Shown in pieces: positions 6,315 to 42,282 of a stretch of DNA of 52,584 nucleotides. The notes below the pieces were generated by a model. That model was not told where the DNA came from, searched no databases, and saw nothing but the letters and a program-made list of their open reading frames with translations. The DNA lies in assembly GCA_020723925.1 (NCBI GenBank), contig DYHX01000003.1, positions 1 through 52,584 of the forward strand. The letters run 5' to 3'. The position numbers and the translations under genes are program-made. How positions within the stretch are numbered: the first letter of the stretch is position 1; every line of letters starts with the position of its first letter. The DNA comes from Nitrospira japonica. Its GTDB lineage: Bacteria > Nitrospirota > Thermodesulfovibrionia > Thermodesulfovibrionales > DYHX01.

Positions 6315-6355
6315 GCCTTCGGTGCATAAAAAAATATGTAGGGGTTTATTTAAGC

Positions 6356-19398: not shown

Positions 19399-19437
19399 GG
19401 GATTACAAAGATTATAAATAATTTAGGATTTAAACCC

Positions 19438-19457
19438 AATTTATAAGTTTATAAATT
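19438..19457. promoter_or_regulatory. AT-rich palindrome upstream of acsE (possible operator)
   Basis: AATTTATAA-GT-TTATAAATT in the AT-rich cooC-acsE spacer. Confidence 0.3.
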
Positions 19458-19551
19458 AAAATAATTACTAAAACTCTTTACCTTAAGTGTTAATTTGTGT
19501 TATTTTTTACATCTTAACTGAATTTAAAGACAGGAAAGGAGTCTCCAGAGG

Positions 19552-20334: not shown

Positions 20335-20345
20335 GAGGCGATAAG

Positions 20346-21287: not shown

Positions 21288-21292
21288 AACTA

Positions 21293-21366
21293 TGACACGG
21301 CGAAACAGGGACACGGCGACTCGGAGAAAAATCTCCCCTGCACCGTTTCTCCCATTCTCCGTGTTG
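21293..21366. repeat. Degenerate octamer tandem repeat plus inverted counterpart (acsD-acsC junction)
   Basis: GACACGGC-GAAACAGG-GACACGGC-GACTCGGA then CCCCTGCA-CCGTTTCT-CCCATTCT-CCGTGTT. Confidence 0.7.
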
Positions 21367-21395
21367 TTCATATTTTAGAAATTTGGAGGAAAAAG

Positions 21396-22739: not shown

Positions 22740-22740
22740 A

Positions 22741-22836
22741 GACAGTGTCAGTGTCAGTGAATAGTGTCAGCAATTAGTGCAAGTGAATAGTGACAGTGTC
22801 AGTAAAAGAAAAGAACTGACACTGAACACTGACATT
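22741..22836. repeat. (GTGTCA)-type tandem repeat plus inverted counterpart (acsC-acsB junction)
   Basis: AGTGTCAGTGTCAGTGAATAGTGTCAG... followed by ACTGACACTGAACACTGACA. Confidence 0.8.
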
Positions 22837-22865
22837 AATCACTATAAATAACATAGGAGGTTGGA

Positions 22866-25064: not shown

Positions 25065-25066
25065 AC

Positions 25067-25147
25067 TGACGCGGAGACGGGGAGACACGGAGAATCGGAG
25101 AAATAATTTTTTTCACCGTGTCTCCATTTCACCGTTTCCCCGTGTCA
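25067..25147. repeat. Octamer tandem repeat plus inverted counterpart forming a hairpin (acsB-cooS junction)
   Basis: TGACGCGGA-GACGGGGA-GACACGGA-GAATCGGA ... CACCGTGT-CTCCATTT-CACCGTTT-CCCCGTGTCA. Confidence 0.75.
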
Positions 25148-25167
25148 ATGAAAAAGGTGGAGGTAAA

Positions 25168-27153: not shown

Positions 27154-27210
27154 TGAATAGTAAAAATAAGTGTCTATGACTATTCACTGTTCACTAACGA
27201 CTATTCACTG
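27151..27210. repeat. AGTGAAT/ATTCACT heptamer repeat with inverted counterpart (cooS junction)
   Basis: TAGTGAATAGT ... ACTATTCACTGTTCACTAACGACTATTCACT. Confidence 0.7.
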
Positions 27211-27222
27211 TTTGGGGGTTAG

Positions 27223-27708
27223 ATGAAAATAGAAGAGCTGAATGTGGATGAAAGGATAGGCAGCGCTGGCGATGTCCTTACAGAGAGCCAGAAAAAGAGG
27301 GGGCTACTGATCCATGCATTCCAGAGTATACAGAAGGAGCACAATTATCTGCCAGAGGATGTTTTGCAACAATTATCAAAGAAACTTGATATACCGCTAT
27401 CTGACGTTTACAGCACAGCCTCTTTTTACAAACACTTCTACTTTAACCCGAGGGGTAAGAACATAGTCTGCGTATGCATGGGCACTGCCTGCCATGTAAG
27501 GGGAGCAGGAAAGGTATTGGAGAAATTGGGGAAAACCTTCGGGGTGAAGGAAGGCGAGACAACTCCTGATTTATCGTTGACCCTTGAGACTGTAGGTTGT
27601 GTCGGCTGTTGCGGACTGGCCCCTGTTGCTACAGTAAATGACGAGGTTGTGGGTGACCTTAGCGCTAAAAAGGTTGATGAGATAATAAAGAAAGTTAAAG
27701 AGGGGTGA
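27223..27708 (+). CDS. NuoE/HydC-like [2Fe-2S] subunit
   Basis: NYLP, ASFY, CMGTACHVRG, ETVGCVGCCGLAP. Confidence 0.92.
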   Translation: MKIEELNVDERIGSAGDVLTESQKKRGLLIHAFQSIQKEHNYLPEDVLQQLSKKLDIPLSDVYSTASFYKHFYFNPRGKNIVCVCMGTACHVRGAGKVLEKLGKTFGVKEGETTPDLSLTLETVGCVGCCGLAPVATVNDEVVGDLSAKKVDEIIKKVKEG

Positions 27709-27709
27709 G

Positions 27710-29596
27710 ATGGGAAAGCTAAAGAGCGCAGAGGATTTGAGAAACCTGAGAAAACTCCTTGAGGATGAGACGTTTAAACCGGGAACCCCGAGGATGAGGG
27801 TCTGCAGCGGTACCGCCTGCACTGCCACAGGCTCACAAAAAGTTGTAAATGCTATACAGGATGAGGCAGCAAGGAGGGGGATAACCCTCGATATTGTAAA
27901 GACAGGCTGCCAGGGTTTTTGCCAGAAAGGGCCTGTCATGAAGGTTGAACCACAGGGGATATTCTATCAGAAGGTTAACCCGGAACACGCCTCATGGCTC
28001 ATTAGCTATACAGTCATCGGAGGGATACCATACAGGCAGGGCCTTTTCAGGGAAAATATTTTGAGCGAACCTATACCTGAGATGACAGATGTACCCTTTT
28101 ATAAGAAACAGGTGAGAATAGTTTTGAAAAACAATGAGCTTATAGACCCACGAAATATCTATCATTATATAGCTGTTGGCGGATATTCAGCCCTGGAGAA
28201 GGCCATTGGCTCCATGACCCCTGATGAGGTATTGAATGAGATAGATAGGGCGAACCTGAGGGGCCGCGGCGGCGCAGGGTTTCCAGCAGGGAAGAAATGG
28301 AGGCACACGAAGAATGCCCCGGGAGAGATAAAGTTTGTAATAGCAAACGGTGATGAAGGAGACCCTGGAGCATTTATGGACAGGTCTGTTATGGAAGGGG
28401 ATCCCCACAGCCTTTTTGAGGGGATGCTCCTCTGCGCGTATGCCATTGGCGCACAATACGGGCTTATCTATGTGAGGCACGAATATCCATTAGCTGTTAA
28501 GAACCTGGGGATTGCAATTAAGCAGGCGGAGGAACTTGGGCTGCTCGGCAAGAATATCCTCGGCAGCAACCTTAGCTTTACCATTGATATAAGGGAAGGC
28601 GCCGGTGCCTTTGTATGCGGTGAATCAACTGCACTTGTTGCATCCATCGAGGGTGAGAGGGGATTCCCAAGGCCGAGACCCCCGAGGCTTTCCGAACCAG
28701 GCGGTGGGGTATGGGGTTATCCGAGTAATTTGAATAATATAGAGACATATGCATGTGTGCCTCCTATAATCGAGAGAGGGGCTGATTGGTTTCGAAGCAT
28801 TGGCACAGAGAATTCTCCAGGCACAAAGGTCTTTGCCCTTACAGGCAAGGTTAAAAACACAGGGCTTGTTGAGGTTCCGATGGGGATAACCCTCAGGGAG
28901 ATTGTTTTTGATATCGGCGGCGGTATTACGGGAGGCAAAAAGTTCAAGGCTGTGCAGACCGGTGGGCCTTCTGGAGGCTGCCTGCCTGCAGAATACCTTA
29001 ACCTGTCTGTGGATTTCGATTCCCTTACAAAGGTTGGCTCTATGATGGGCTCAGGCGGTATGGTCGTCATGGATGAGGACAACTGCATAGTCGATGTTGC
29101 AAAGTTTTTCCTCTCATTCACACAGTCAGAGTCCTGTGGCAAGTGTCCTCCGTGCAGAATAGGCACATCACAGATGCTCGAAATCCTCGAAAAAATAACT
29201 TCAGGACAGGGAGAAGAGGGCGATATCGAACGACTTGAGAAGATAGGAAGGCTTGTCCATGACGGCTCTCTCTGTGGTCTTGGCCAGAGCGCACCGAACC
29301 CTGTGCTTTCTACAATAAAATATTTCAGAGAAGAATACGAAGAACACATATATGATAAATATTGTAGGGCAAAGGCATGTAGCGGTCTTGGCATGTTCAG
29401 GATAGACAATGATGAATGCTTCCTTTGCGGGCTCTGCAAGCAGGCGTGTGCATTCGATGCTGTAAAAGAGACAAAGGATAAATTTTTTATAGATCAAGAC
29501 TACTGCACAAAATGCAAGGCGTGTTACCCTGCATGCCCGATAGGGGCGGTGAAAATAGAAAAACAAGCAAGAAAAAGTGTCAGTGTCAGTGAATAG
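27710..29596 (+). CDS. NuoF/HydB-like FMN/NAD(P)H-binding subunit with N-terminal [2Fe-2S] and C-terminal 2x[4Fe-4S]
   Basis: CSGTAC..GCQGFC; LRGRGGAGFP; NGDEGDPGAFMD; GAFVCGE; QTGGPSGGC; ESCGKCPPCR..SLCGLG; EHIYDKYCRAKAC; two CxxCxxCxxxC motifs. Confidence 0.94.
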   Translation: MGKLKSAEDLRNLRKLLEDETFKPGTPRMRVCSGTACTATGSQKVVNAIQDEAARRGITLDIVKTGCQGFCQKGPVMKVEPQGIFYQKVNPEHASWLISYTVIGGIPYRQGLFRENILSEPIPEMTDVPFYKKQVRIVLKNNELIDPRNIYHYIAVGGYSALEKAIGSMTPDEVLNEIDRANLRGRGGAGFPAGKKWRHTKNAPGEIKFVIANGDEGDPGAFMDRSVMEGDPHSLFEGMLLCAYAIGAQYGLIYVRHEYPLAVKNLGIAIKQAEELGLLGKNILGSNLSFTIDIREGAGAFVCGESTALVASIEGERGFPRPRPPRLSEPGGGVWGYPSNLNNIETYACVPPIIERGADWFRSIGTENSPGTKVFALTGKVKNTGLVEVPMGITLREIVFDIGGGITGGKKFKAVQTGGPSGGCLPAEYLNLSVDFDSLTKVGSMMGSGGMVVMDEDNCIVDVAKFFLSFTQSESCGKCPPCRIGTSQMLEILEKITSGQGEEGDIERLEKIGRLVHDGSLCGLGQSAPNPVLSTIKYFREEYEEHIYDKYCRAKACSGLGMFRIDNDECFLCGLCKQACAFDAVKETKDKFFIDQDYCTKCKACYPACPIGAVKIEKQARKSVSVSE

Positions 29597-29767
29597 TGTC
29601 AGTAAGAATTTTACTAAGAAGACCACAAGTAAGGCGACATAATTATGTTTGTTTTGTCATCCCGACTTGAACGGGATCATTCTTCAAGAAGGATTCCTGA
29701 CAAGCAGGAATGACAGAGTGTGGTGCCTTACTTATGACCGTATTTGTAACTGACACTGACACTAACT
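29576..29767. repeat. (GTGTCA) repeat pair enclosing a REP-like palindrome
   Basis: AGTGTCAGTGTCAGTGAATAGTGTCAG (29576-29602), inner TGTCATCCCGACTTG...CAAGCAGGAATGACA (about 29655-29715), then ACTGACACTGACACTAACT. Confidence 0.75.
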
Positions 29768-29776
29768 GGAGGCAAG

Positions 29777-30367
29777 ATGACAGAGCAGAAGGAAAAAAAG
29801 GTTGAGGACATAAAGAAAGAGGCAGAGGCAACAAAAAAATGCCCTGTCAACAAGGCCTTTTACTACATAGATGAGTTTCTGTCCGGCCCAATGTGCGGTA
29901 AATGCCTGCCGTGTTCTCTTGGGAGTTATGAGGCAAGGATTCGCCTTGATAATATAGTTCAAGGGAAAGGCGCAGAGGTTGACCTATACGCCCTGAAGAG
30001 GATTGCAAATGAGATGCTTGAAGGCTCCATGTGCAAGAAAGGCAAGGATACAGCTAAATTTATACTTGACTGGATGAGTACAGATGTTTATAGGGAGCAT
30101 ATTGAAGGAAAGTGCCCTGAGATGGAATGCCTTGCCCTCATAGAATACAGGATTATTCCCGAAAGATGCATTATGTGTGGGGACTGCCAGGAGGTTTGCA
30201 AGTATAATGCGATTATGGGTGAGAAGAAGGTGACGTATCTTTCAGGGTATCTGCCTTTTGAGATAAGGCAGAAGAGGTGCACCAAATGTGGTGAGTGCGT
30301 AAAAGTCTGCCCGACAGCGTCAATTGTGATTGTTGATGTAAAAAGTAAAGAGCTTGTTGGAGTATAA
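29777..30367 (+). CDS. Stand-alone Fe-S protein equivalent to the C-terminal half of NuoF/HydB ([4Fe-4S] N3-type domain + 2x[4Fe-4S])
   Basis: CPV..MCGKCLPCSLG..SMCKKG..EHIEGKCPEMEC, then CIMCGDCQEVC and CTKCGECVKVCP; GGAGG RBS. Confidence 0.85.
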   Translation: MTEQKEKKVEDIKKEAEATKKCPVNKAFYYIDEFLSGPMCGKCLPCSLGSYEARIRLDNIVQGKGAEVDLYALKRIANEMLEGSMCKKGKDTAKFILDWMSTDVYREHIEGKCPEMECLALIEYRIIPERCIMCGDCQEVCKYNAIMGEKKVTYLSGYLPFEIRQKRCTKCGECVKVCPTASIVIVDVKSKELVGV

Positions 30368-30376
30368 CTTTAAAAT

Positions 30377-30452
30377 TGTCACCCTGAACTTGTTTCAGGG
30401 TCTAATAAATTAAAATTGATTATTAAGATGCTGAAACGAGTTCAGCATGACA
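30377..30452. repeat. REP-like inverted palindromic pair
   Basis: TGTCACCCTGAACTTGTTTCAGGGTCT ... AGATGCTGAAACGAGTTCAGCATGACA. Confidence 0.75.
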
Positions 30453-30470
30453 TTAATAGGGGAGGCATAG

Positions 30471-32498
30471 ATGGCAAATATGGTAAAACTCACAATAGAT
30501 GGTAAAGAGATTTGTGCTCCTGAAGGGATGAACCTCGTAGAGGCTGCTGAGGCTACTGGCATTCATATTCCAAACCTCTGCTACCTGAAAGGCATGAAGG
30601 GTATAGGTGCATGCAGGATGTGTCTTGTTGAGGTAGAAGGTATGAAAGGTCCAATGATAGCATGCACAATGAAGGTCAAAGAGGGCATGGTTATCAACAC
30701 AAAGACAGAAAAGGTTCAAGAAGTTCGTAAATTTGTCATAGACCTTATTCTCTCGATGCATCCACTTGACTGTATGACCTGCACAAAGGCAGGGGTATGT
30801 AACCTCCAGAAGTATGCATATGACTTTGAGATAAAAGAGTCAAGTTTCACAAGGAAGAAGTTTGGATATCCAGTTGATGAGGCAAACCCATTCATAAAGC
30901 GTGACCCCGACTACTGCATACTCTGCGGAAAATGCGTTCGTATCTGTAAAGAGCAGGGGACAAAAGTCCTCGAGTTTATGGGAAGGGGTGTTGGCTCAAA
31001 GGTTACAACAGCAAATGATAAGCCTCTTCAGGAATCGGGCTGCACATTTTGTGGAAGTTGCGTGGATGCATGCCCTGTTAATGCCCTTCTTGAGGCTGAC
31101 AGATGGAGGAAGGGAAGGGAATGGGAATATGAGAAGGTAGGTTCTGTGTGTCTTTCATGCGGTAATGCATGTGATATAACAGTCAGCGTGCATGACAATG
31201 AGGTAGCAAAGATAAACGCAGGTGCGCCAGAGGGTTCTATTGAACAATACATATGTGCAATAGGGAGATTCGGTTTTGACTGCATGAAGAGTGAGACGAG
31301 GCTCACATCTCCGATGAAGAGGGTGGGTAACGAACTCAAGGAGACAACATGGGAGGATGCCATCGAAACAGTTGCAAAGGAACTGAAGAAGGCTGGTGAA
31401 AATGCAGGATTTATATCAACAGCAGGAATCCTGAATGAAGATGCTCTTACCCTAAAGAAATTCGCATCGGATGCTGTAAAGACAAAGAATGTCGATACAA
31501 CTGCAAGCCTTTACGGAGATGCAGATACATTAATATCAGGAAGTGCAAAGCTTGATTCAGCAGACCTCTTTGTACTTGTGGATTTAAATCCAAGCCAATG
31601 GGACAGGGTACTGCCTGCAATTGATGCTGTCATCAGAAGAAGGATTAATGCAGGTGCAAAACTGATTGTCATTAATTCTTCAGAGCCGAAGGTTGCATCT
31701 GTGGCAACGGTAAATCTTATTGAGAACGAGTCGTCAGCCCTTATGTCCCTTGCAAAGGCACTTATTGATAAAGGCTTGACAGGCGATAAAAAGCTCGCAT
31801 CAGCAGTTTCAAATGCATCAGTTACAGAGGCAGTGGAAAAGGCAGCAACACTTTATATGGAGGCAAAGAATCCTGTGATACTCACATCTCCTGCAATGTA
31901 TCCTGCTGCTGCCAATATCAGCCTCTTAAAGGGCGTAGCAGTATCAGTGCCTGTTGAGTCCAATGCAAAGGGTGTAATTTTAATGGGACTCACAACAGAG
32001 GGAAAGACATACAAGGAGATGGTCTCAGGCGGCATGAATGTCCTCTATGCTGCTGGTGAGATACCCGCCCTGAAGTCAGAGGTCAGGGCGAATGTGGATT
32101 TCCTGATTGTTCAGAACTCTCATCTTTCAGAGCTTGCAAAGCAGGCAGATATTGTCCTGCCATCGGCAACCTTCCTTGAGGCAGAAGGCAGCATTGTGGA
32201 TTACCTTGGAAGGCTCAAGTATGTGCTTAAGGCTGTCGAGCCAGCAGGCGAGGCAAAACAGCACAGGAATATTTTTATAGAACTCTCAAAGGCGATGGGC
32301 AGTCCGATAAAAGAACCAAAAGAAACTGAGATAAAGAAGGCAATGAAAATAAAGGCAAAGCCATCGTTCAGCCCATTTAAGAAGAAAGAGGGGCTTGATA
32401 TATCCCCGAATGAGATGATCGAGTCTATCAACGCATCTGTGATCAATGGCTCAAGGCTCCTCTGGCTCAAGGAAACAGAGAAAACCGTTACAGTTTGA
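30471..32498 (+). CDS. NuoG/HydA-N-terminus-like Fe-S subunit with degenerate molybdopterin-oxidoreductase C-terminal fold
   Basis: [2Fe-2S] (LCY..GACRMC..AC), His-ligated cluster HPLDCMTC, CILCGKCVRIC, CTFCGSCVDACP, CLSCGNAC..CAIGR; ADIVLP..EAEGS tail; no H-cluster motifs seen. Confidence 0.85.
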   Translation: MANMVKLTIDGKEICAPEGMNLVEAAEATGIHIPNLCYLKGMKGIGACRMCLVEVEGMKGPMIACTMKVKEGMVINTKTEKVQEVRKFVIDLILSMHPLDCMTCTKAGVCNLQKYAYDFEIKESSFTRKKFGYPVDEANPFIKRDPDYCILCGKCVRICKEQGTKVLEFMGRGVGSKVTTANDKPLQESGCTFCGSCVDACPVNALLEADRWRKGREWEYEKVGSVCLSCGNACDITVSVHDNEVAKINAGAPEGSIEQYICAIGRFGFDCMKSETRLTSPMKRVGNELKETTWEDAIETVAKELKKAGENAGFISTAGILNEDALTLKKFASDAVKTKNVDTTASLYGDADTLISGSAKLDSADLFVLVDLNPSQWDRVLPAIDAVIRRRINAGAKLIVINSSEPKVASVATVNLIENESSALMSLAKALIDKGLTGDKKLASAVSNASVTEAVEKAATLYMEAKNPVILTSPAMYPAAANISLLKGVAVSVPVESNAKGVILMGLTTEGKTYKEMVSGGMNVLYAAGEIPALKSEVRANVDFLIVQNSHLSELAKQADIVLPSATFLEAEGSIVDYLGRLKYVLKAVEPAGEAKQHRNIFIELSKAMGSPIKEPKETEIKKAMKIKAKPSFSPFKKKEGLDISPNEMIESINASVINGSRLLWLKETEKTVTV

Positions 32499-32592: not shown

Positions 32593-33810
32593 TTAATGGT
32601 TAGTTTCCTTAAGCGGCAGAAATTTTACTCCGAATGTGTATAACAATGCAAAGAGGGCAGTTATCCCCAGCGTAATAACAATCTCAAAGAATGTCGGGAA
32701 ATATGAAGGAAGCCCTTCTTTTAATACCGGAAGCACCTGTCCTGCTGTGACGAAATTATATCTCATCACGAATAAACCCATGAGAACGAGCAGTGAGCTA
32801 ACAAATATTCCACGATGTGTTACCTTTGGAGTTAGAAGTATTATTATCGGAATAATCGTTCCAAGCAGTATTTCAAAGACATAGAAAGAAAAGCTGAATG
32901 GTCCATTTATCAGCAACATAATTGAGTTTATCTTTTCAGGGTTATTTACGCTTGAAAAGATCATCCATGAGTTAAACAAAAGCCCCATAGAAAGCATCAG
33001 GGCCAATAATTTGCCAAGCTCACATATTAATCTACTTAGTTTATCACCAATCTCTTCCCCTCTTATCCAGTATGTAAGGATTGTGATGAACAGAAAGAAG
33101 GAAAGCCCTGAAAATGTTGCTGATAGAACAAAATAAGCAGGGTAGAACGCACCATACCAGAGTGATCTCGCCTCTGTGTGCGCAAAGACTGCACCGAGTG
33201 TGCTTACTGCCGCGAGTCCTGTAACGAATGCTGATCCTCCTGCTGCCTTTGCAAGTTTATGGTCAAGGTGAACCGACCTTTCGGATTCATCCTTCCTTCC
33301 AAAAACGAGCAGGCTATAAAATACCTGTTTGTATCCTGTTGAGGTGTTGGCAATCTTTGCCATATCAGCCCTCGCAAGTAACAGGTATTCTATAATCACA
33401 AAAAGCAGATATACAGAATAGAAGAACCCCATCCACAATATACCTGACTTGAGGTTGGGGCTTAAATACACATAGACAAATGCCCTCTCTACATGTCCAA
33501 GATGAAGGAGGATTGCTAAAAGACCTGACATAATAGCTATTGAGGCAAAGAATACACCCCTTTTGCTTATTAATTCATATCTTTTGATGCCAAAGACATG
33601 CCCTAACGATGTTATAACACACATGCCTGAACCTGATACTACAAAGAAGACATATACAGATACAAGCATTGTCCACGGGATGTGTGTTGATATCTCAAGT
33701 ATCTCCTGACCCTCTACAAAGCTCAACAGAACTACAAATGCCCCAAGGATAATAAAGGCAAGTAGGAAACTCATCCACCAATAAAAAATTGTATCTCTGC
33801 TGGAAATCAT
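32593..33810 (-). CDS. NrfD/PsrC-family quinol oxidoreductase membrane subunit
   Basis: About 10 TM helices; IPWTMLVSVYVFF, HLGHVER, SPNLKSGILWM, RSLW, RYNFVTAGQ. Confidence 0.9.
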   Translation of the reverse strand: MISSRDTIFYWWMSFLLAFIILGAFVVLLSFVEGQEILEISTHIPWTMLVSVYVFFVVSGSGMCVITSLGHVFGIKRYELISKRGVFFASIAIMSGLLAILLHLGHVERAFVYVYLSPNLKSGILWMGFFYSVYLLFVIIEYLLLARADMAKIANTSTGYKQVFYSLLVFGRKDESERSVHLDHKLAKAAGGSAFVTGLAAVSTLGAVFAHTEARSLWYGAFYPAYFVLSATFSGLSFFLFITILTYWIRGEEIGDKLSRLICELGKLLALMLSMGLLFNSWMIFSSVNNPEKINSIMLLINGPFSFSFYVFEILLGTIIPIIILLTPKVTHRGIFVSSLLVLMGLFVMRYNFVTAGQVLPVLKEGLPSYFPTFFEIVITLGITALFALLYTFGVKFLPLKETNH

Positions 33811-33819
33811 GCCTCCCCC

Positions 33820-34641
33820 CTATTCTTTGTCACCACTTCCGCGTGAAAAAAGATATAAAACACCCGCAAGTACTGCCCCTGCAAGAAAGCCGGTGGAACT
33901 TATCCTTAGCCTGTCAATGTCCTCGGATACTATTTTTTGTGGTGCAACAATAAGCCCCATTTCTTCGGGAGGAGCCGGCAGGATGGTGATAACATCTGTT
34001 CCCCCTGCCTCCTTCTCTCCAAGTACATAACCTCTGACAAGCTGAGCCTTTACCCTCGCTTTCCTCAGCATCAGGTCTCTGTATCCATAATCCAGTGCCT
34101 CAACAGGACAGGCAGCCACACAGGCGGGTTTGAGTTTTGGTATCCTGTCATAACAGAGATGGCACTTCCTTGTGATTCTCTTATGAAAATCAAATCTTGG
34201 CACCTTAAATGGACATGCCTGATAGCAATACCTGCAGCCTATACACTTTGTCTCGTCTATGACAACAGCGCCTGTTACTGGATTTTTTGTAATGGCGGTT
34301 ACAGGGCATACACCTGCACAGGCAGGTTTTATGCAATTCTGACATTGCCACTTTAAAAATTTCCCTATCTCGCCATTACGGCTGCTCCGAACAAAGTTAA
34401 CCACTGTATAGGTGGTCCCGTCCATATCCCTTACCAGCGTCTCAGGGACTTCGTAGGGTGGAAGTTTATTCCAACGCTTGCAGGCAGACATGCAGCGCCT
34501 GCATCCTATGCACTTGAAGGTATCCATGAGCTTTGCATACCTTCTCTCGCCTGTCTTAGGATTTACGGCGAGCGAGGCAGGCGCCGCGCCCATCAGCTTT
34601 ATAAAATCACGCCTTGTAAGGTTACTGTCTTCCCATGCCAT
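33820..34641 (-). CDS. Tat-exported NrfC/HybA-like 4x[4Fe-4S] protein with C-terminal anchor
   Basis: TRRDFIK twin-arginine motif; CIGCRRCMSAC, CQNCIKPACAGVCP, CIGCRYCYQACP, KCHLC..PACVAACP; start reassigned to ATG 34641 (GGAGA upstream). Confidence 0.9.
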   Translation of the reverse strand: MAWEDSNLTRRDFIKLMGAAPASLAVNPKTGERRYAKLMDTFKCIGCRRCMSACKRWNKLPPYEVPETLVRDMDGTTYTVVNFVRSSRNGEIGKFLKWQCQNCIKPACAGVCPVTAITKNPVTGAVVIDETKCIGCRYCYQACPFKVPRFDFHKRITRKCHLCYDRIPKLKPACVAACPVEALDYGYRDLMLRKARVKAQLVRGYVLGEKEAGGTDVITILPAPPEEMGLIVAPQKIVSEDIDRLRISSTGFLAGAVLAGVLYLFSRGSGDKE

Positions 34642-34661
34642 TTCCGTATCTCCATTCTTGT

Positions 34662-34734
34662 TTGTCATCGCGAGGCTGACAAAGTCAGCCAAAGCAATCT
34701 CAAGACGAGATTTCTCGCTTCGCTCGGAATGACA
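34662..34734. repeat. REP-like palindromic element
   Basis: TGTCATCGCGAGGCTGACAAAGTCAGCCAAAGCAATCTC ... GAGATTTCTCGCTTCGCTCGGAATGACA; outer TGTCAT/ATGACA ends like the elements at 29655 and 30377. Confidence 0.7.
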
Positions 34735-34752
34735 AAAAGTGAGTAATAAAAC

Positions 34753-36165
34753 CTATTTCTTTGGTGCTTCTTCTTTCTTATCTACCTTATCTACAGGTTT
34801 TTCAATTGAAATTGTTACTTTTCCAAGTCCGAATTGTTCTCTCCTTTTGTTTTTAACTGCCTCCACTACCTTCATCATATCTTCGGGCTTGTCTTTTTCA
34901 TGGTAATGGCATGCATTGCAGGAGTTTGGCTGTTTTGCAAGACCGCCGTGTTTAAGGGTTTCAGAAGGGCTTACGAACTTAAATCTGTGGCTGCTTATGT
35001 CAAACTCTGCTTCTCCCCTCTTAACTGCTGTCTGGGAGGTCTTTGGCATGTGACAGCCCCTGCAGTCATTGGTTGTGTGGATGCCGTGGAAACCTTCATT
35101 AGTTATCTTATGGCAATTTAAGCATAATTCATTGGCAGGTGCCTTTAATGAGCCCTTGCTTAGTGCTCCTTTTTGATGCACTGCATGACAGTCCCAGCAG
35201 TTTACACCCGAAAGTGCATGTTTGCTCTTTGCCCAGTCTACATACTGCTGGCGATGCATCTTTGGACTGCCGTCAGGCCACTCGCCAGGTTTTTCGTCAT
35301 AATAGCTCCTTAATACCAAGCCGGGTAGATACCCAGCAGGACCTCCAGAATATTCATAATGTTTCGGACCATAAGGCGATTCCGTGTTCTTTACTGATAC
35401 ACCTCTATTGTGGCACTGTCCACATATCTGAGCAGCACGTTTTGCATCGTGTATCTTTGCAGGATTAACTATGGTCGTGGACTTTAAACCGAGAGGCGCC
35501 TTCAAATGCTCACTTCCCGGCCCATGGCATGACTCACATCCTATCCCGCGTTCTACCAGAGTGGTATCGAATCTATCATTTTTTGCATCATAATTAATCT
35601 TTACTCCAACTGCGTGGCAGCCTGAGCAGTGATACTGCCATGCCCTTCCTTTGTCACTCCAGTATTTGCCGTCTCCGGGCTTCTGTTTTGCAAGACCATG
35701 ATAATCCGTCCATTTCTTTGTCTCCACATTCCACTGAACCGGTAAGACATGGAGTGCGCCGTTTGGGAATTCTGTTAAATATCTCTGCTTCCATGCACCT
35801 CCGATAACATATTTAAGCTCGTATGTTTCTTCTTTACCATCACGACCTATTGTTGTAACATAGTGTTTACCATCTTTTGTAGACATCTTTGTTGTGTAGT
35901 CGCCTGCTTTAAAGGTGTTGTTCTTTGTGAAATCACCGACTACAGTATTTATACTTGCAGGTCTTTCCTGATGGGGATGGAGGGTTGTGAGCCAGCTTTC
36001 ATACTGGTCTTTGTGACAGCCTGCGCACCTCTGTGAGCCTACATATTCAGCCTTTGAAATGGCAGTAATCATCTCATCTGTATATCCAAAAGGTTGCTGT
36101 GTATAAACCATCAGCACAGCAACTACAAGCACTATTGAAAATAATATGACTTTCATATGTTTCAT
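34753..36165 (-). CDS. Periplasmic octaheme cytochrome c (paralog 3)
   Basis: Signal peptide; 8 CxxCH: CAGCH, CSGCH, CESCH, CGQCH, CWDCH, CLNCH, CRGCH, CNACH. Confidence 0.92.
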   Translation of the reverse strand: MKHMKVILFSIVLVVAVLMVYTQQPFGYTDEMITAISKAEYVGSQRCAGCHKDQYESWLTTLHPHQERPASINTVVGDFTKNNTFKAGDYTTKMSTKDGKHYVTTIGRDGKEETYELKYVIGGAWKQRYLTEFPNGALHVLPVQWNVETKKWTDYHGLAKQKPGDGKYWSDKGRAWQYHCSGCHAVGVKINYDAKNDRFDTTLVERGIGCESCHGPGSEHLKAPLGLKSTTIVNPAKIHDAKRAAQICGQCHNRGVSVKNTESPYGPKHYEYSGGPAGYLPGLVLRSYYDEKPGEWPDGSPKMHRQQYVDWAKSKHALSGVNCWDCHAVHQKGALSKGSLKAPANELCLNCHKITNEGFHGIHTTNDCRGCHMPKTSQTAVKRGEAEFDISSHRFKFVSPSETLKHGGLAKQPNSCNACHYHEKDKPEDMMKVVEAVKNKRREQFGLGKVTISIEKPVDKVDKKEEAPKK

Positions 36166-36180
36166 TTCTATAACCTCCCT

Positions 36181-37575
36181 TTATTTTTTAGGAGCAGTCT
36201 CTTTTACAGGTGGTACAGGTGGTATGCGCTTTCCTAAACCGACTGATTCCCTCTTTTTATTCCTTACAGCATCTATTGCCATCTGTAAATCTTCAGGGCT
36301 GTCCTTTTCGTGATAGTGGCATCCGTTGCAGGAGTTGGGTTGCTTTGCAAGTCCACCATATTTAAGTGTTTCAGCAGGACTTACGAACTTAAACCTGTGG
36401 CTGCTTATATCAAACTCAGCCTCACCCCTCTTAACAGCCGTCTGGGATGTCTTTGGCATGTGGCATCCCCTGCAGTCATTATTGCCGTGTATGCTATGTG
36501 TTATATCACTATCTATCTTATGGCAATTTAAGCATAATTCATTGGCAGGTGCCTTTAATGACCCCTTGCTCAGCGCTCCTTTCTGATGGACTGCATGACA
36601 GTCCCAGCAATTTACACCTGAAAGTGCATGTTTGCTCTTTGCCCAGTCTACATACTGCTGGCGATGCATCTTTGGACTGCCGTCAGGCCATTCAGCGGGC
36701 TTTTCATTGTAATAGTTTCTCAATACAAGACCTGGCAAATACCCTGCTGGTCCAGCAGGGTATTCATAAAATTCTGGACCATGAAGAGAATCTGTCTTTT
36801 TCACAGATACACCTCTGTCATGGCACTGACCGCATATCTGCGCAGCCCTCTTTGCATCGTGTATCTTTGCAGGATTAACTATGGTTGTAAATTTCTTGTT
36901 CATCGGTGCAATGACATGCTCACTGCCTGCTCCATGGCATGACTCACAACCTATACCTCTTTCTACAACAGTTGTATTGAACCTGTCCTTTTTAGCATCA
37001 TAGTTAATCTGTAGTCCTGTCACATGGCATGTGCCGCATTGATATTGCCATGTGCGGTTTTTGTCACTCCAGTATTTGCCGTCTCCGGGCTTCTGTTTTG
37101 CAAGACCATGATAATCCGTCCATTTCTTTGTCTCCACATTCCACTGAACCGGTAAGATATGGAGTGCGCCGTTTGGGAATTCTATTAAGTATCTCTGCTT
37201 CCATGCACCACCAATTACATACTTGATTTCATAAGTTCCTTCTTTACCCTCAGGACCTATAGTTGTGACATAGTATTTCCCATCCTTTGTGAACATCTTT
37301 GCTGTATAACCGCCTGCCGTAAATGTGTTGTCCTTTATAAAATCTCCGACTACAGTATTTTTATTTGCTGGCCTTTCCTGATAAGGATGCAGTGTTGAAA
37401 GCCATGACTCATACTGGTCTTCATGACAGCCCGCACACACCTTTGAACCAACATATTTTGATTTGGATATGGCTGCAATCCTTTCATCAGTGTAATCAGC
37501 AAAAAGACCTGTCACTAATAATGACAGGAATGCTGTCGAAATGATAAGAGCGATTATGAGATATATCTTTTTCAT
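36181..37575 (-). CDS. Periplasmic octaheme cytochrome c (paralog 2)
   Basis: Signal peptide; 8 CxxCH: CAGCH, CGTCH, CESCH, CGQCH, CWDCH, CLNCH, CRGCH, CNGCH. Confidence 0.92.
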   Translation of the reverse strand: MKKIYLIIALIISTAFLSLLVTGLFADYTDERIAAISKSKYVGSKVCAGCHEDQYESWLSTLHPYQERPANKNTVVGDFIKDNTFTAGGYTAKMFTKDGKYYVTTIGPEGKEGTYEIKYVIGGAWKQRYLIEFPNGALHILPVQWNVETKKWTDYHGLAKQKPGDGKYWSDKNRTWQYQCGTCHVTGLQINYDAKKDRFNTTVVERGIGCESCHGAGSEHVIAPMNKKFTTIVNPAKIHDAKRAAQICGQCHDRGVSVKKTDSLHGPEFYEYPAGPAGYLPGLVLRNYYNEKPAEWPDGSPKMHRQQYVDWAKSKHALSGVNCWDCHAVHQKGALSKGSLKAPANELCLNCHKIDSDITHSIHGNNDCRGCHMPKTSQTAVKRGEAEFDISSHRFKFVSPAETLKYGGLAKQPNSCNGCHYHEKDSPEDLQMAIDAVRNKKRESVGLGKRIPPVPPVKETAPKK

Positions 37576-38805
37576 TTACTTTGCCTCCTTCCGAGCGGTA
37601 ACAGGTTTTGGTGTGCCTGCCTGTTTTACCGAAGACCATGCACCCATAAGCTCAGCGAGAGGCGTATCTTTATGGTGATGGCATCCGCTGCACGAATTTG
37701 GCTGGTTTTTGACCCCATCGTGCTTAAAGCTTTCATCAGGACCCACAAACTTGAAGCTGTGGCTTCTTTCTTCTCCTGCATACATGCCTTCTTTTACAGT
37801 TTTAGGCATATGGCAGGCTATGCAGCTACCAAAAGTATGTATTGTATGAGACGCTTTTGCCTCAAGCTGAAGCGGCTTATGACAGCTTTTACATAGCTCA
37901 TCCCCCGCCTGCTTGGTCTGAAATAGCGTTTCTTTTTCATGGACACTGTGGCAGGTAAAACATGCTACGCCTGCTTTTGCATGCTCGCTCCTTTCCCAGT
38001 CTATGTATTGTTGATGGTGGAGTTTTGAATCCTTGCTCGGCCAGAATTTATCAGGATTCTTTTCAGGGGATACTGTTTTAAAAAAGAGCCTCAGATTTGC
38101 CCCTGGGGTTACCCTGTAATTTACAGGATAGGCATATTCCCCGCTCTTGTCCGTACCAGAGTTGTGGCATGAGCCGCATATATCAGCGGCAGCCCTTGGT
38201 GTAAGCTTTGCAGGGTTTATAATGGTGAATATCTCATAGCCGAGGACAGCTTTTACATGGTTGCTGCCAGGTCCGTGGCATGACTCACATCCTATGCCTG
38301 CCTCTTTGAATGTCTTTTTTGCAGGGTCTACACCAGTAGCATGGCAGCCTCCACATTCCTTAAACCATGGCCTTTCCTTCCACCTCTTGTCTTCAGGTGT
38401 TTCCTCCCACTTCCCTGCTTCTACATTAAACTGAGCAGGAAGTATGAAATACTCATCCCCGACCTTTGTAAGATACCTCTGCCTCCACTGACTTCCGATG
38501 GTATAAAGGATATCCTCTTTCTTAAATGTCTTTGGTGCAGTCGGGGCATCAAAATCACCGAGTACAGCTGCTGGGTCTTTTTTGACATCCACCATCATCT
38601 TTGCGTGAAGGGTCCCCTTCCAGTTGGAATATAACCTCTCATGACATTTTCTGCACTCATCCGAGCCTACGAATGTAGCATTCACCATGTCCTTAAATTC
38701 TCCTTTTGGCGCCTCTCTCTTTTTGACTACTATGATTGTTGTAACAACCACTATAGAGAGAGTCAGGAGAAAGATGATGCCGATAATCCATGGTAATTTC
38801 TTCAT
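37576..38805 (-). CDS. Membrane-anchored octaheme cytochrome c (paralog 1)
   Basis: Long N-terminal hydrophobic helix; 8 CxxCH: CRKCH, CGGCH, CESCH, CGSCH, CFTCH, CKSCH, CIACH, CSGCH; AGGAG RBS. Confidence 0.92.
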   Translation of the reverse strand: MKKLPWIIGIIFLLTLSIVVVTTIIVVKKREAPKGEFKDMVNATFVGSDECRKCHERLYSNWKGTLHAKMMVDVKKDPAAVLGDFDAPTAPKTFKKEDILYTIGSQWRQRYLTKVGDEYFILPAQFNVEAGKWEETPEDKRWKERPWFKECGGCHATGVDPAKKTFKEAGIGCESCHGPGSNHVKAVLGYEIFTIINPAKLTPRAAADICGSCHNSGTDKSGEYAYPVNYRVTPGANLRLFFKTVSPEKNPDKFWPSKDSKLHHQQYIDWERSEHAKAGVACFTCHSVHEKETLFQTKQAGDELCKSCHKPLQLEAKASHTIHTFGSCIACHMPKTVKEGMYAGEERSHSFKFVGPDESFKHDGVKNQPNSCSGCHHHKDTPLAELMGAWSSVKQAGTPKPVTARKEAK

Positions 38806-39100
38806 CCTACCACTCCTTTCTGCCCTGAGCTGGCAATGTTTTTAATAATTAAATTTGAGGTGTTAATAGATTTAGCCTTCAGGATTTGTTTCAATTTTCA
38901 CTCCTCAGGAGGAATATGGTCAATAGAAAAGTTATTCACTAATCTGGGATTTTTGTGAAGAAAAATTCACGGCAGCTCTGTAAAGATTATCTGGGTATAG
39001 ATGAGGACAAAGATTACAGTGTTCAAGATAACCACTTCATGATTTTGTGCCAATAGAGAGATGTCCAATATGTATGAATCTATCTTTAAGAAGCATATCG

Positions 39101-39832
39101 TCAGACTATTCTAATCGTTAAGAGCACTCCGATTATTATCACCATAGTTGCAACATAGAGTTTGAAGGCTTTCAGTGATAGCTTATTTAACAGGTTTTTC
39201 CCCGCAAATGTCCCTGCAAATGCTGATAGGGTTGTAATAAGCAAGAGCAGTTCACTGGTAGCAAGTGCCTCTCTGTTGTTAAATATATAAACAGGGATTC
39301 TTGTAATATCAACAATGGATGCAATAATAGCTGCTGTGGCGACAAATGTCTCTTTTGAAATATCGTAGTTGAGCAGATATGCACTGCGGATTGCTCCCTG
39401 ATTGCCCACAAATCCACCGAGAAGTCCTGATAGAAAGCCGCCTATGAAATCTATTCTTTTCGGTAGTTTAAATTTTTCGCCTCCCCCTGTTGCCTCTTTT
39501 AAACCGAGAAATATTAAAGATAAACCAAGCAAAATCTTTACAACTGATGAATCCATTTTGCCCTGAAAGAATGCGCCTATAAAAGCGCCCATTAGTGTTA
39601 ATACCCCAAACCGTTTTAAAATATCCAGACTCACATGCCTGCTGAAAAGGGATAGTTTTAAAAGATTATTCGCCAGATGTACAACTGCTACTATCAGGAT
39701 GGCAATCTTGACATCATAGAATATGAGAAATACTGGCGTTAAAATCGTGCCCAGCCCGAACCCTGTCATGAGAGTTAAGGCAGCAGCCATGAATGCCATG
39801 AGAACAGGAATTAAGATGTTTATTTCAATCAT
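39101..39832 (-). CDS. TauE/SafE (TSUP) family permease
   Basis: TGFGLG..LTP, internal repeat SGLLGGFVGNQGAIRS, FVAT; about 8 TM helices. Confidence 0.85.
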   Translation of the reverse strand: MIEINILIPVLMAFMAAALTLMTGFGLGTILTPVFLIFYDVKIAILIVAVVHLANNLLKLSLFSRHVSLDILKRFGVLTLMGAFIGAFFQGKMDSSVVKILLGLSLIFLGLKEATGGGEKFKLPKRIDFIGGFLSGLLGGFVGNQGAIRSAYLLNYDISKETFVATAAIIASIVDITRIPVYIFNNREALATSELLLLITTLSAFAGTFAGKNLLNKLSLKAFKLYVATMVIIIGVLLTIRIV

Positions 39833-40124
39833 GCATTACCTCGTCTATGAGCTCATTTATCTTTTCTTTAATCTGTGACAGTGTCCTTATGCCCTTTGTC
39901 GTTGTTCTGTAATACTTTCTTATTTTTCCACCAACATTTTCTGAATACGACCTCAAGAACTTTTCCTCTTCAAGTTTGTGAAGGACAGGATAAAGCGTTC
40001 CAGGACTCAGCTTATATCCATGTCTGCCAAGCTCCTCAATAAGCCACAAACCATACACAGGCTCTTTAGATGCATGGTGTAGGATATGAATTCTTATAAA
40101 ACCTAAAAAGAAATCTCTAAGCAT
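39825..40124 (-). CDS. PadR-family transcriptional regulator
   Basis: ILHH..PVYG..SPGTLYPVLHKLE..RKYYRTT.KG winged HTH. Confidence 0.93.
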   Translation of the reverse strand: MLRDFFLGFIRIHILHHASKEPVYGLWLIEELGRHGYKLSPGTLYPVLHKLEEEKFLRSYSENVGGKIRKYYRTTTKGIRTLSQIKEKINELIDEVMHD

Positions 40125-40202: not shown

Positions 40203-40853
40203 TTATGTTGAAAGGTGATTCTCTAAAATCTTAAGGCAGTCAAGGGTCTTTTCGCCTTCTTTTGTGATCACATATGACTTCTCTTTATCCTGTTCTATAA
40301 GCCCTGCCTCTTTAAGCATCCTCAGATGAAAAACCACCTTTGTATGGTCTTCTATGCCGAGTTCTCTCGTGATTTCCATAAAACGCATACTTGTTCTTGA
40401 GCAGAGCAATCTTATAATCTTTCTTCTTATGGGATTGGATAAAGAGCTCAGGGTATAGTCGAGGTCTAACTTCTTTATGCCTTCTTCAAACTTTGACTCT
40501 TCAATCGCCCGCCTTATTGTTGTAAGGAGCTCCTCTATCTTAAAGGGTTTGGATATATAGTCGCTTGCCCCCTTTTTTATAGCATCTACTGCGTTTTCGA
40601 CTGTTGCAAAGGCCGTAATCATAATTACTCTTGTTTTTGGTCTAACCCTTCTAAGCTCTGCAAGGGCATCAATACCGCTCATCCTTGGCATCATTAAATC
40701 AAGGAGGGCGATATCGTAGTCTTCAGAGGCAGCCTTCTCTATCGCCTCCTTACCAGAGGCTGCTTCATCTGTATGGTATCCTGCCCCTTTCAGTATCTCA
40801 GAGAGGTTTGCCCTTAGTTCCGCATCATCATCTACTATGAGAATCTTTTTCAT
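40203..40853 (-). CDS. Response regulator: REC fused to an ArsR-like winged-helix domain
   Basis: KILIVDDD, LLDLMMP, ITAF, YISKPF; C-terminal LSNPIRRKII..FHLRMLKEAGLI..YVITKEG. Confidence 0.88.
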   Translation of the reverse strand: MKKILIVDDDAELRANLSEILKGAGYHTDEAASGKEAIEKAASEDYDIALLDLMMPRMSGIDALAELRRVRPKTRVIMITAFATVENAVDAIKKGASDYISKPFKIEELLTTIRRAIEESKFEEGIKKLDLDYTLSSLSNPIRRKIIRLLCSRTSMRFMEITRELGIEDHTKVVFHLRMLKEAGLIEQDKEKSYVITKEGEKTLDCLKILENHLST

Positions 40854-42282
40854 TTTTCTCAATTGACGGAAGTTTAACGGTTACTGTTGTTCCTTTTCCA
40901 ACAGTGCTGGATATTTCTGTAGTGCCACTATGTTGATTGATTATGCCATAGCAGATTGAAAGACCAAGTCCTGTTCCTGCACCAACCTCTTTTGTTGTAA
41001 AGAATGGGTCAAATACCTTTGATAAGTTTTCTTCAGAAATCCCGACCCCTGTATCAGATATTTCTACCTTAATCTGTCCATTGCTATGTGAGGTAGAAAT
41101 GAAAATATTTCCCCCATCAGGCATTGCCTCGACAGAGTTGTTCAGGATGTTTATAAAGACCTGCTGCAGTTTCCCTGGGTCCCCCATTGCAGCAGGGACA
41201 TCTGATAGTTTTTGATGGATTGTTACATCATTGAGTTTGTATCTCAAGAGTGTGAGGGTGCTGGTTATTACATTATTGATATCTAAAGGGATGAATTCGG
41301 ATTCTCTCTGGCGGGAAAACTGCAATAGCTCCTTTGCAATAGTAGATGCCCTGTCTACATTCCTTTCAACCGCTTCAAGTTTTTGTAAAATGTCTTTGTC
41401 TGTGATGTTGTTTTTAAGTCTGTTCTTCAGAATCTGCATATTCAAAGATACATTTGTTAGGGGGTTGTTTATCTCATGAGCAATGCCAGTTGCAAGCTGT
41501 CCGAGAGAAGCCAATTTCTCAGACTGTGCAAGACGTTTTAGTTGTTGTTCTATCTTTTTCCTTGTTTCTATATCAAAAATATTAAGTGCCTTTATGATAA
41601 AGCAGGCGATCAAGACAGCTGATATGCCACGCAGCACCTCTACTGGGATTGGGAGATAAGGTAACATTGAGTGGGAAGGAACCATTCCTGCAAAGATGCT
41701 ATAAAATACAAAGGTGATACCAGCGTAAAAGAGATTTTTTGAAACAGAAAGGCTTAAGTTCTTTACCTCATGGGAGTATGTCACCAACCCATAAGCAGTT
41801 ACAAGCCCGCCAACAAGACCAAAGGTATTCCTTGCCAGGATGTCTGCTTTTTTAAAGAACTGGATATCCATACTGAATCCATGATTCCATAGATATATAA
41901 TCCAGAAGAGAAAAAGAATTGCAGGAATTCCCTTTAACCACTTCATGCGATTATTATCGATAGAGCGTATAAGTGCCAGGCCAAACTGTAAAAGGAAGAA
42001 AAAGGAGAGAACAACAACAAATACTGTTATTAACTTTATAAAGAATATTTCACGAGGTGATATATATTGCCCCTGTAAAAGCATGTAGAGTTCAAGCCAT
42101 TCGTGGGCTCCGTGTGCAAATCCAAACCCGGCCAAAAGATAGAGGCTGCCTGCAAGTTTCAACTCGCTTCCACTTATATCCTTAACCGCAATAGAGACAC
42201 CGAGAAAAAGGAATGCGAGACCATAAAAGAAATAAAGCAGACAGACCGGAGGGATATTTGTAAATAGGTTAAGTTCAGACAT
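40828..42282 (-). CDS. Membrane sensor histidine kinase with a multi-pass (about 7 TM) input domain
   Basis: Hydrophobic N-terminal 240 aa containing HGAHEW; H-box GIAHEINNPL, NILNNS, DTGVG, FDPFFTTK, GTGLGL. Confidence 0.92.
   Translation of the reverse strand: MSELNLFTNIPPVCLLYFFYGLAFLFLGVSIAVKDISGSELKLAGSLYLLAGFGFAHGAHEWLELYMLLQGQYISPREIFFIKLITVFVVVLSFFFLLQFGLALIRSIDNNRMKWLKGIPAILFLFWIIYLWNHGFSMDIQFFKKADILARNTFGLVGGLVTAYGLVTYSHEVKNLSLSVSKNLFYAGITFVFYSIFAGMVPSHSMLPYLPIPVEVLRGISAVLIACFIIKALNIFDIETRKKIEQQLKRLAQSEKLASLGQLATGIAHEINNPLTNVSLNMQILKNRLKNNITDKDILQKLEAVERNVDRASTIAKELLQFSRQRESEFIPLDINNVITSTLTLLRYKLNDVTIHQKLSDVPAAMGDPGKLQQVFINILNNSVEAMPDGGNIFISTSHSNGQIKVEISDTGVGISEENLSKVFDPFFTTKEVGAGTGLGLSICYGIINQHSGTTEISSTVGKGTTVTVKLPSIEKNEKDSHSR

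Follow-up and report, generated by a model that had tools for sequence, protein, structure and literature searches.

A cluster of three octaheme cytochrome genes

We analysed a stretch of 52,584 nucleotides from Nitrospira japonica (positions 1 to 52,584 of contig DYHX01000003.1, assembly GCA_020723925.1; hereafter the window), in which three consecutive octaheme cytochrome c genes are followed on the minus strand by genes for an iron-sulfur (Fe-S) subunit and for a membrane subunit of the NrfD family. Together they appear to encode a quinone-linked periplasmic redox module. An earlier reading of the letters alone (the sequence-only reading) had proposed such a module, and our models support it: the cytochromes are predicted to share the fold of OcwA and to keep the residue pair that covers its heme 2.

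The first cytochrome, cyt1 (37576..38805, 409 aa), has an N-terminal hydrophobic helix that is likely an uncleaved anchor, while cyt2 (36181..37575, 464 aa) and cyt3 (34753..36165, 470 aa) are likely exported. Hydropathy and inspection are the basis for calling one cytochrome anchored and two signal-peptide-bearing, as had been claimed. Next come a Tat-type, NrfC-like 4x[4Fe-4S] subunit of the FdnH/HybA/HmcB type with a C-terminal anchor (33820..34641) and a membrane subunit of the long ActC/QrcD/DsrP-like type with a predicted quinone site (32593..33810; PF03916, E = 2e-31). Gaps between the five genes are 0-15 nt, except for 111 nt ahead of the Fe-S gene. The cluster contains no molybdoenzyme gene, as had been stated.

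Each cytochrome has exactly eight CxxCH motifs, which hold all 16 of its cysteines. CxxCK is absent from all three, and with no Cys beyond the CxxCH motifs a CX15CH motif is impossible, so the reported absence of both is borne out. The sequence-only reading also gave the three proteins the same heme spacing. This is true of cyt2 and cyt3 (133/30/38/75/25/20/48 in each), whereas the spacing in cyt1 (100/22/37/72/23/23/44) is similar and not identical. The shared sequence motifs that it listed do occur in all three proteins in our alignment.

Relationship among the cytochromes

The proteins cyt2 and cyt3 are 76% identical, and their genes share identical DNA runs of 98, 71, 48, and 35 bp. Identity of cyt1 to either is 42-43% by alignment and 35-38% by tblastn. 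In a quick tree of 57 rows, whose long branches are unreliable, cyt2 and cyt3 of the window group together (SH-aLRT 100), and cyt1 and cyt2/3 fall into separate clades. The cluster is therefore not a simple triplication, and the grouping and identical DNA runs suggest gene conversion or re-duplication of cyt2 and cyt3. The three proteins are the sole matches of this family in the host genome (93.8% complete). Searches of Pfam and NCBIfam gave them no model beyond generic heme domains; in the ESM Atlas, cyt2 lies near unnamed c554-domain clusters, the nearest of which are mostly from Nitrospirota.

Predicted fold and the heme 2 pocket

By sequence, the closest relative with a solved structure is OcwA (PDB 6I5B; E = 6e-21, profile E = 1e-40). 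We obtained AlphaFold2 models for cyt2 (predicted local distance difference test, pLDDT, 92.6; predicted template modelling score, pTM, 0.87) and cyt1 (pLDDT 79.9); cyt3 has no separate model. Against OcwA, the cyt2 model gave a Foldseek E of 3.6e-20 and a VIA Z of 23.2 (root-mean-square deviation, rmsd, 2.9 over 340 aligned residues), and the cyt1 model a VIA Z of 26.6 (rmsd 2.9, 333 aligned). For both models the top three structural matches are OcwA, then OmhA (Z 14-15) and MccA (Z 10.3-10.5), with NrfA at Z 5-7.5 and c554 at about 6. The cyt1 model matched HAO at Z 4.6 and IhOCC at Z 4.1, against 26.6 for OcwA. Of the proteins that the sequence-only reading had put forward for comparison, MccA thus comes third after OcwA, and c554 and HAO lower; OTR is missing from the fold matches listed, which does not exclude an OTR fold. 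The fold of cyt1 and cyt2 is predicted to be a trimmed version of OcwA's, and cyt1-3 belong to clade 3 (c554, MccA, OcwA, and OmhA) as drawn in excerpts of PMC9250108.

What has been trimmed can be read from the alignment. All three cytochromes keep OcwA hemes 1-4 and 6-9, which is the heme set of MccA. The heme 5 segment is deleted: six residues between H316 and C323 stand in place of 44 in OcwA that include a CLKCH motif. A c554-like N-terminal module of four hemes is present, with c554 residues 1-180 spanning model residues 37-331. Histidines H27 and H102 of c554 align with H63 and H220 of the family, and H330 lies at c554 H179 by range; we take these c554 residues to be the ligands of hemes 4, 1, and 3. 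In both models the chain ends one helix past heme 8, and the alignment with OcwA stops at OcwA residues 469-473. The tail after heme 8 has a median of 28 aa among 115 homologues (112 of the 120 matches listed, out of 864 at E <= 1e-20, plus the three window proteins), and most of OcwA's C-terminal three-helix bundle is missing from the family. This bundle forms oligomers in this protein group, according to excerpts of PMC9250108.

In OcwA, heme 2 is five-coordinate beneath the pair HH281/282 (excerpts of PMC6703420). The pair aligns to positions 304/305 of cyt2, and an offset of +29 fits both published HH pairs as well as the chain range of the structural alignment. It is His-His (HH) in cyt1 (H263-H264, codons 38014..38019, minus strand) and His-Arg (HR) in both cyt2 (H304-R305, codons 36661..36666, minus strand) and cyt3 (H304-R305). 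Among the 115 homologues, these two positions read HH in 71, NR in 35, HR in five, and otherwise in four, whereas eight other non-motif histidines (63, 220, 316, 330, 360, 363, 393, and 422) are 93-100% conserved. Such variability beside eight conserved histidines fits a pocket and not an axial ligand. Heme 2 is therefore predicted to be five-coordinate and open under a His-His or His-Arg pair. An open heme 2 needs seven distal ligands, which leaves one conserved His spare. Two of the eight can be placed further: H360 corresponds to H380 of OcwA, which lines the pocket of the heme 5 that is missing here, and H422 may stand in for a ligand that the bundle carries.

Iron-sulfur and membrane subunits

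The RRxF Tat motif of the Fe-S protein is accompanied by 16 Cys and a single C-terminal hydrophobic segment. Translation probably begins at ATG 34641 (273 aa) and not TTG 34692, since the starts of orthologues match the former. The membrane protein (405 aa) falls in PF03916 (NrfD), and a crude scan gives it 11 hydrophobic segments, of which two overlap. These results uphold the Tat-type protein and the NrfD family given in the sequence-only reading but not orthology to Nrf. The NrfC model TIGR03149 scores 100.7 bits against a cut-off of 377.6; the best NCBIfam matches of the Fe-S subunit are HmcB and HybA, below cut-off (FdnH is also among its best matches), and those of the membrane subunit are QrcD, HmcC, and DsrP, all below cut-off. 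The only solved structure that the membrane subunit matches, and weakly, is the NrfD chain 8K9E_C (E = 0.0035), presumably the ActC subunit of alternative complex III, which oxidises quinol. The NrfD-like energy-transducing complexes (excerpts of PMC8076601) combine a PF03916 membrane subunit with a neighboring 4x[4Fe-4S] protein, and the cluster encodes both.

Distribution of the family

A family profile matched 40 of the 390 genomes of class Thermodesulfovibrionia at E <= 1e-60. Across the phylum, cyt1 alone as the query had matches in 10 of 301 genomes, and at E <= 1e-30 a full search with the profile turned up 2,560 representatives. We compared gene neighborhoods in 112 loci: 79 metagenome loci, 20 regions selected by length from the 40 genomes, and 13 others. 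This set leaves out L042 (a duplicate of L002) and nine distant loci, and its members are not independent, as several share one genome or family. Forty-nine loci hold a close member of the family (270 bits or more); the remaining 63 hold distant members only.

A quinone module lies within 3.5 kb and on the same strand in 43 of the 49 close-member loci. The modules (Pfam-checked) are of the NrfC/D type in 25 loci, NapC/NirT in nine, and a triheme protein and/or cytochrome b561 in nine. Only 3 of the 63 distant loci have a match to any of them. No other catalytic gene was seen in the NapC and cytochrome b loci, except for a molybdoenzyme about 1.8 kb downstream in L055. The triheme protein is membrane-anchored and without a Pfam match; it and cytochrome b561 accompany the octaheme family in L046, L048-L050, L052, L053, L055, L056, L059, L062, and L075, and L062 has three consecutive octaheme modules.

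All seven proteins of the cyt2/3 clade have HH or HR as their pocket pair, as do 9/9 cytochrome-b-linked proteins and seven of the eight NapC-linked proteins (the eighth was unread by motif and is HH in the tree alignment). In the cyt1 clade the pair is HH in four of ten proteins, all four from three-cytochrome operons, and lost in the other six (AY, SY, YH, YH, SN, and GY). Counted by genome, cyt1 keeps HH in four of the five with three-cytochrome operons.

Repetition of the octaheme module takes other forms as well. Fourteen of 148 retrieved representatives carry at least two heme 3 signatures, and several of these are whole-module tandem fusions of two to four modules. Fusions of OcwA-type modules include P0124, P0126, P0127, P0130, P0152, and P0156, with up to 32 CxxCH motifs, and P0130 has HH in its first pocket and HR in its second, like cyt1 followed by cyt2. 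More distant octaheme genes adjoin the cluster in two loci (L002:438-3790 and L157:6342-7871), giving five within 11 kb in L002.

Another recurrent operon of Thermodesulfovibrionia, as yet uncharacterised, combines genes for an Fe-S protein, NrfD, an octaheme and an 11-heme cytochrome, a second Fe-S protein, a molybdoenzyme of the ArrA/PsrA clade (about 850 aa), and a chaperone (L155, L158, L161-L165, L168-L171, L176, L177, and L038). It often lies behind genes for a phosphonate-binding-type protein, a kinase, and a regulator, and ars-type genes adjoin some copies. We dropped an ArxA/ArrA identity for the L158 molybdoenzyme, which reaches no NCBIfam cut-off and has HYGRMK where ArrA has RGRY; excerpts of PMC6549141 give neither motif.

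Regulators and flanking genes

Upstream of the cytochromes, also on the minus strand, are genes for a membrane sensor histidine kinase (40828..42282; Pfam HisKA and HATPase_c), a response regulator with receiver and winged-helix domains (40203..40862) that likely regulates the cluster, a PadR-family regulator (39825..40124), and a TauE/SafE-family exporter (39101..39832; PF01925). The order kinase-regulator-cyt1-cyt2-cyt3-Fe-S-NrfD is complete in L001 and L002 and, where contig ends break it, consistent in two further genomes (G479, from L172 and L003, and G472, from L174). The gene order, with its kinase/regulator pair, thus recurs in other Thermodesulfovibrionia. In L001, L002, L172, and L174 the kinase orthologues are 63-71% identical, and the regulator orthologues (72-78%) lie directly upstream of cyt1. 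For padR we found no match at E <= 1e-15 in 13 related loci.

An imperfect palindrome upstream of cyt1, TGT(G/C)AA-N6-TT(C/G)ACA (38954..38971), is a candidate operator. Together with a downstream TTGA element, it is conserved in the window, L001, and L002. At one mismatch it has one match in the window against a chance mean of 0.72, so only its conservation counts. The genes tauE and padR are inserted upstream of this region in the window only, and with a conserved promoter-like region between it and cyt1, tauE may not be co-transcribed with the cluster. A general promoter scan was near chance (29 against 21.8 +/- 4.7), and the scan found no terminator at the cluster end.

The 111-nt gap before the Fe-S gene has a folding energy of -33.8 kcal/mol and contains a short hairpin-forming repeat (34664..34733). 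The repeat resembles repetitive extragenic palindromic (REP) elements and has 13 further blastn matches on nine other contigs of the genome; it could affect mRNA stability or the levels of downstream genes.

On the opposite strand, genes for carbon monoxide dehydrogenase/acetyl-CoA synthase (CODH/ACS) converge on the cluster, as had been noted. They are part of a Wood-Ljungdahl cluster (18631-32498, plus strand; acsB and cooS confirmed), after which NuoE/F/G-like genes form a possible NAD-linked or bifurcating module. The convergence looks incidental: no CODH gene follows nrfD in L002 or L003, the two related operons whose sequence past nrfD can be read (L001 ends at a contig edge), and we rejected a functional link on this ground.

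Elsewhere, the host genome encodes DsrA and AprA, several Tat-type molybdoenzymes, other multiheme cytochromes, and an octaheme nitrite reductase (ONR) homologue (E = 3e-167) beside a NapA-like gene. The NapA-like protein that adjoins the ONR homologue at L180:2792-6124 is unusually long (1111 aa). A TtrA-like molybdoenzyme gene in L181 (contig C24 of G000, 4140-7400) appears as three successive open reading frames of 103, 594, and 399 aa and is maybe split or frameshifted.

Proposed function and alternatives

We propose, at about even chances, that the cluster encodes a terminal reductase of the periplasm that is fed by quinol and follows the MccACD/NrfABCD plan. The NrfD-family subunit would oxidise menaquinol, and the Fe-S subunit would hand the electrons to cyt1, which is probably anchored. 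Reduction of a soluble acceptor, at the predicted five-coordinate heme 2, would fall to cyt2 and cyt3, which are probably exported. The upstream kinase and regulator presumably control the cluster. We infer the direction of electron flow, the order of the subunits, the control by the kinase and regulator, and the substrate alike. The proposal draws on the predicted fold, the retained pocket, the quinone modules of 43 of the 49 close-member loci, and the lack of any match to the 11-heme cytochrome in the host genome (93.8% complete), where the best match to its partner molybdoenzyme is 28%.

If the cluster is a reductase, we mildly favor a sulfur oxyanion or polysulfide as the substrate, at slightly less than an even chance. 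TauE lies beside 3 of the 49 close-member loci and rhodanese beside two, the host has DsrA and AprA, and the ONR homologue would already cover nitrite. The sequence-only reading had taken the adjacent TauE gene as a hint of sulfur oxyanions; at three loci in 49 this hint is weak, even with an orthologue (81%, L003:3306-4034) that follows nrfD in L003. OcwA/MccA-related multiheme proteins of Dethiobacter have been proposed, from proteomics, to serve in sulfur-compound respiration (excerpts of PMC10376724). Given a reductase, soluble Fe(III), quinone shuttles, or other acceptors are less likely, and nitrite, nitric oxide, or hydroxylamine, as a secondary or detoxifying activity, a little less likely again.

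Several observations weigh against a reductase. OcwA turns over nitrite only once per minute and does not reduce sulfite, going by excerpts of published work on it. The Fe-S subunit is similar to HybA/HmcB/FdnH and the membrane subunit to QrcD/HmcC, all of them components of quinone-reducing systems. By count, the eight conserved non-motif histidines suffice for bis-His ligation of every heme; counting distal histidines, by which the sequence-only reading hoped to find a five-coordinate heme, leaves room for full ligation. Among the 25 NrfC/D loci, 11 hold a molybdoenzyme gene (ArrA/PsrA clade, reaching no family cut-off) and 17 hold an 11-heme gene. The octahemes of the 11-heme/molybdoenzyme loci are mostly HH (17 of 20 by motif; two are GP and one was unread), and with HH persisting beside molybdoenzymes the pair does not prove catalysis. 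Finally, in L158, orthologues of cyt1, NrfC, and NrfD (61%, 54%, and 49%) precede genes for the 11-heme cytochrome, the second Fe-S protein, and the molybdoenzyme.

This last arrangement raises the chance that cyt1-3 serve as an electron relay or capacitor and not as an enzyme. Through a chain of as many as 24 hemes, they would carry electrons from quinol to a separately encoded periplasmic enzyme, a soluble shuttle, or an outer-surface cytochrome. We regard this role as the main rival and a serious one, though less likely than the reductase. It agrees with the loss of the pocket pair in six of ten cyt1-clade proteins and in the two molybdoenzyme-linked GP members, with the sufficiency of the eight histidines, with the tandem fusions and repeated heme 3 signatures, and with the host's Tat-type molybdoenzymes and other multiheme cytochromes. 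However, the host molybdoenzyme clusters that we viewed mostly have Fe-S and NrfD-type genes of their own, the 11-heme partner was not found in the genome, and the pair is retained by 7 of 7 cyt2/cyt3-clade proteins and by cyt1 in four of the five three-cytochrome genomes. The 24-heme hetero-oligomer of the sequence-only reading is conjectural, as the family lacks most of the bundle that forms oligomers in this protein group; the natural fusions nevertheless make it plausible that the cytochromes are chained.

Electrons might instead flow the other way, as in Nhc, Hmc, Qrc, and hydrogenase-2, from a periplasmic donor through the cytochromes to an NrfD subunit that reduces menaquinone. The donor would be a reduced sulfur compound, hydroxylamine, or a hydrogenase or formate dehydrogenase acting via carriers. 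We think this improbable. The best profile matches of both subunits point this way but are far below the family cut-offs, and the one solved structure that the membrane subunit matches, weakly, is presumably the quinol-oxidising ActC. NapC/NirT proteins, with which relatives pair in nine loci, are usually quinol dehydrogenases, and among characterised relatives OcwA, OmhA, and MccA act as reductases. On the other side, the host carries DsrA and AprA, OcwA is described in excerpts of published work as acting on hydroxylamine in vitro in both directions, by reduction and by oxidation, and Qrc, Nhc, and hydrogenase-2 are quinone-reducing in excerpts of PMC8076601.

It is very improbable that the cytochromes are a sulfite reductase of a divergent MccA/SirA type or an ammonifying nitrite reductase of the NrfA/ONR type: MccA has the same heme set, ranks third among the structural matches, and is encoded in an operon of the same plan, but the window proteins are only 18-20% identical to it and about 250 residues shorter, have no Cys beyond CxxCH and hence neither CX15CH nor a cysteine-bound copper site, and lack CxxCK in a genome with a separate ONR homologue.

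Returning to the proposed reductase, its boldest form is unlikely, though less so than reversed flow: an undescribed class of octaheme reductase, a copper-free and bundle-free descendant of OcwA, that in these subsurface Nitrospirota would act on a sulfur oxyanion or polysulfide through a 24-heme chain of one anchored and two exported copies with several open HH/HR sites, and would replace the 11-heme and molybdoenzyme end of the same quinol module without molybdenum.

Comparison with known systems

The operon plan, a multiheme cytochrome with an NrfC/NrfD pair and no molybdoenzyme, is already known: excerpts of PMC8076601 describe MccACD, NrfABCD, and NhcABCD as molybdenum-free cytochrome-FeS-NrfD complexes. 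The octaheme family itself is a pruned OcwA type and appears to be uncharacterised. We found no functional study of it or of a three-octaheme cluster in the full-text literature, with most subscription journals outside the search, and nothing on the family in excerpts of PMC11492766, 10.1101/2025.05.29.656830, PMC13510729, PMC10732223, PMC6549141, or PMC8840924. Excerpts of PMC7829351 show OcwA/OmhA-related octaheme clusters of unassigned function. We rejected identity with MccSep/ExtKL (excerpts of PMC13510729), as the match is limited to the heme 1 motif.

Octahemes have been proposed to arise from nonahemes by heme loss (excerpts of PMC6703420). Compared with MccA, the present family is the nearer relative of OcwA, and it is without heme 5. 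It is thus a natural test of that proposal, and of the question whether a pocket formed by His-His or His-Arg can carry out catalysis. As the family occurs in 40 of 390 genomes of the class, with three unrelated quinone modules, knowing its substrate would put a name to a respiratory step that recurs among microbes of anoxic sediments and the subsurface.

Like NrfABCD, the cluster has multiheme cytochromes fed by an NrfC/NrfD-type pair, a likely relay cytochrome, and no molybdoenzyme. NrfABCD differs in its short eight-helix NrfD, against about ten hydrophobic segments here in a pair that is not orthologous to Nrf, and in the catalytic CxxCK (or equivalent) heme that NrfA and ONR carry in the C-terminal module. 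CxxCK is absent from cyt1-3, which lack the heme at the NrfA heme 1 position (OcwA heme 5) and have their predicted open heme in the N-terminal c554-like module. HAO, HDH, and IhOCC have a catalytic heme in the C-terminal module and an oligomer-forming bundle; here the heme is absent, and so is most of the bundle. The cytochromes of Nhc, Hmc, Qrc, and DsrJOP of sulfate reducers are c3-type or other electron carriers and not OcwA-fold proteins. These systems share the combination of a multiheme cytochrome, an Fe-S subunit, and a long NrfD-type subunit, and they are the nearest profile matches of the Fe-S and membrane genes, all below cut-off. The OTR fold has a Lys-ligated heme 2. OTR, too, is without the helix bundle (excerpts of PMC9250108).

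Within clade 3, cytochrome c554 (PDB 1FT5/1FT6) is the four-heme N-terminal module alone, and OmhA (PDB 6QVM) is a surface-bound undecaheme. MccA/SirA (PDB 4RKM) is an octaheme with the same heme set, and its open heme 2 would have a counterpart in the one predicted for cyt1-3. It differs by its CX15CH motif at heme 8 and by its length, and the 18-20% identity is from structural alignment. The copper of MccA is held by two cysteines; cyt1-3 have no spare Cys, and the 115 homologues show no conserved extra Cys column. The active-site residues of MccA could not be mapped onto the family, as the profile alignment with 4RKM cannot be trusted from heme 1 to heme 2 and leaves the region after heme 3 uncovered. 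Copper in the MccA/SirA active site is described in excerpts of PMC6703420. In excerpts of PMC8076601, MccACD likewise has a 4x[4Fe-4S] and an NrfD-like subunit; its NrfD has eight helices and its cytochrome one gene, against about ten helices and three genes here.

The closest comparison is with OcwA of Thermincola potens, a nonaheme reductase of the cell surface that reduces Fe(III) oxides and whose fold the models share, with an identity of 31-33% across 333-340 residues. An extra beta-sheet region and hemes 1-4 and 6-9 are common to both, and the His-His pair over heme 2 of OcwA is HH in cyt1 and HR in cyt2 and cyt3. OcwA has nine hemes, including a second open one, heme 5, whereas cyt1-3 have eight and have lost the heme 5 segment. 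OcwA also has the full three-helix bundle, of which cyt1-3 keep one helix, and it is exposed at the cell wall, whereas cyt1-3 are three paralogues, predicted to be periplasmic and encoded with a quinone module.

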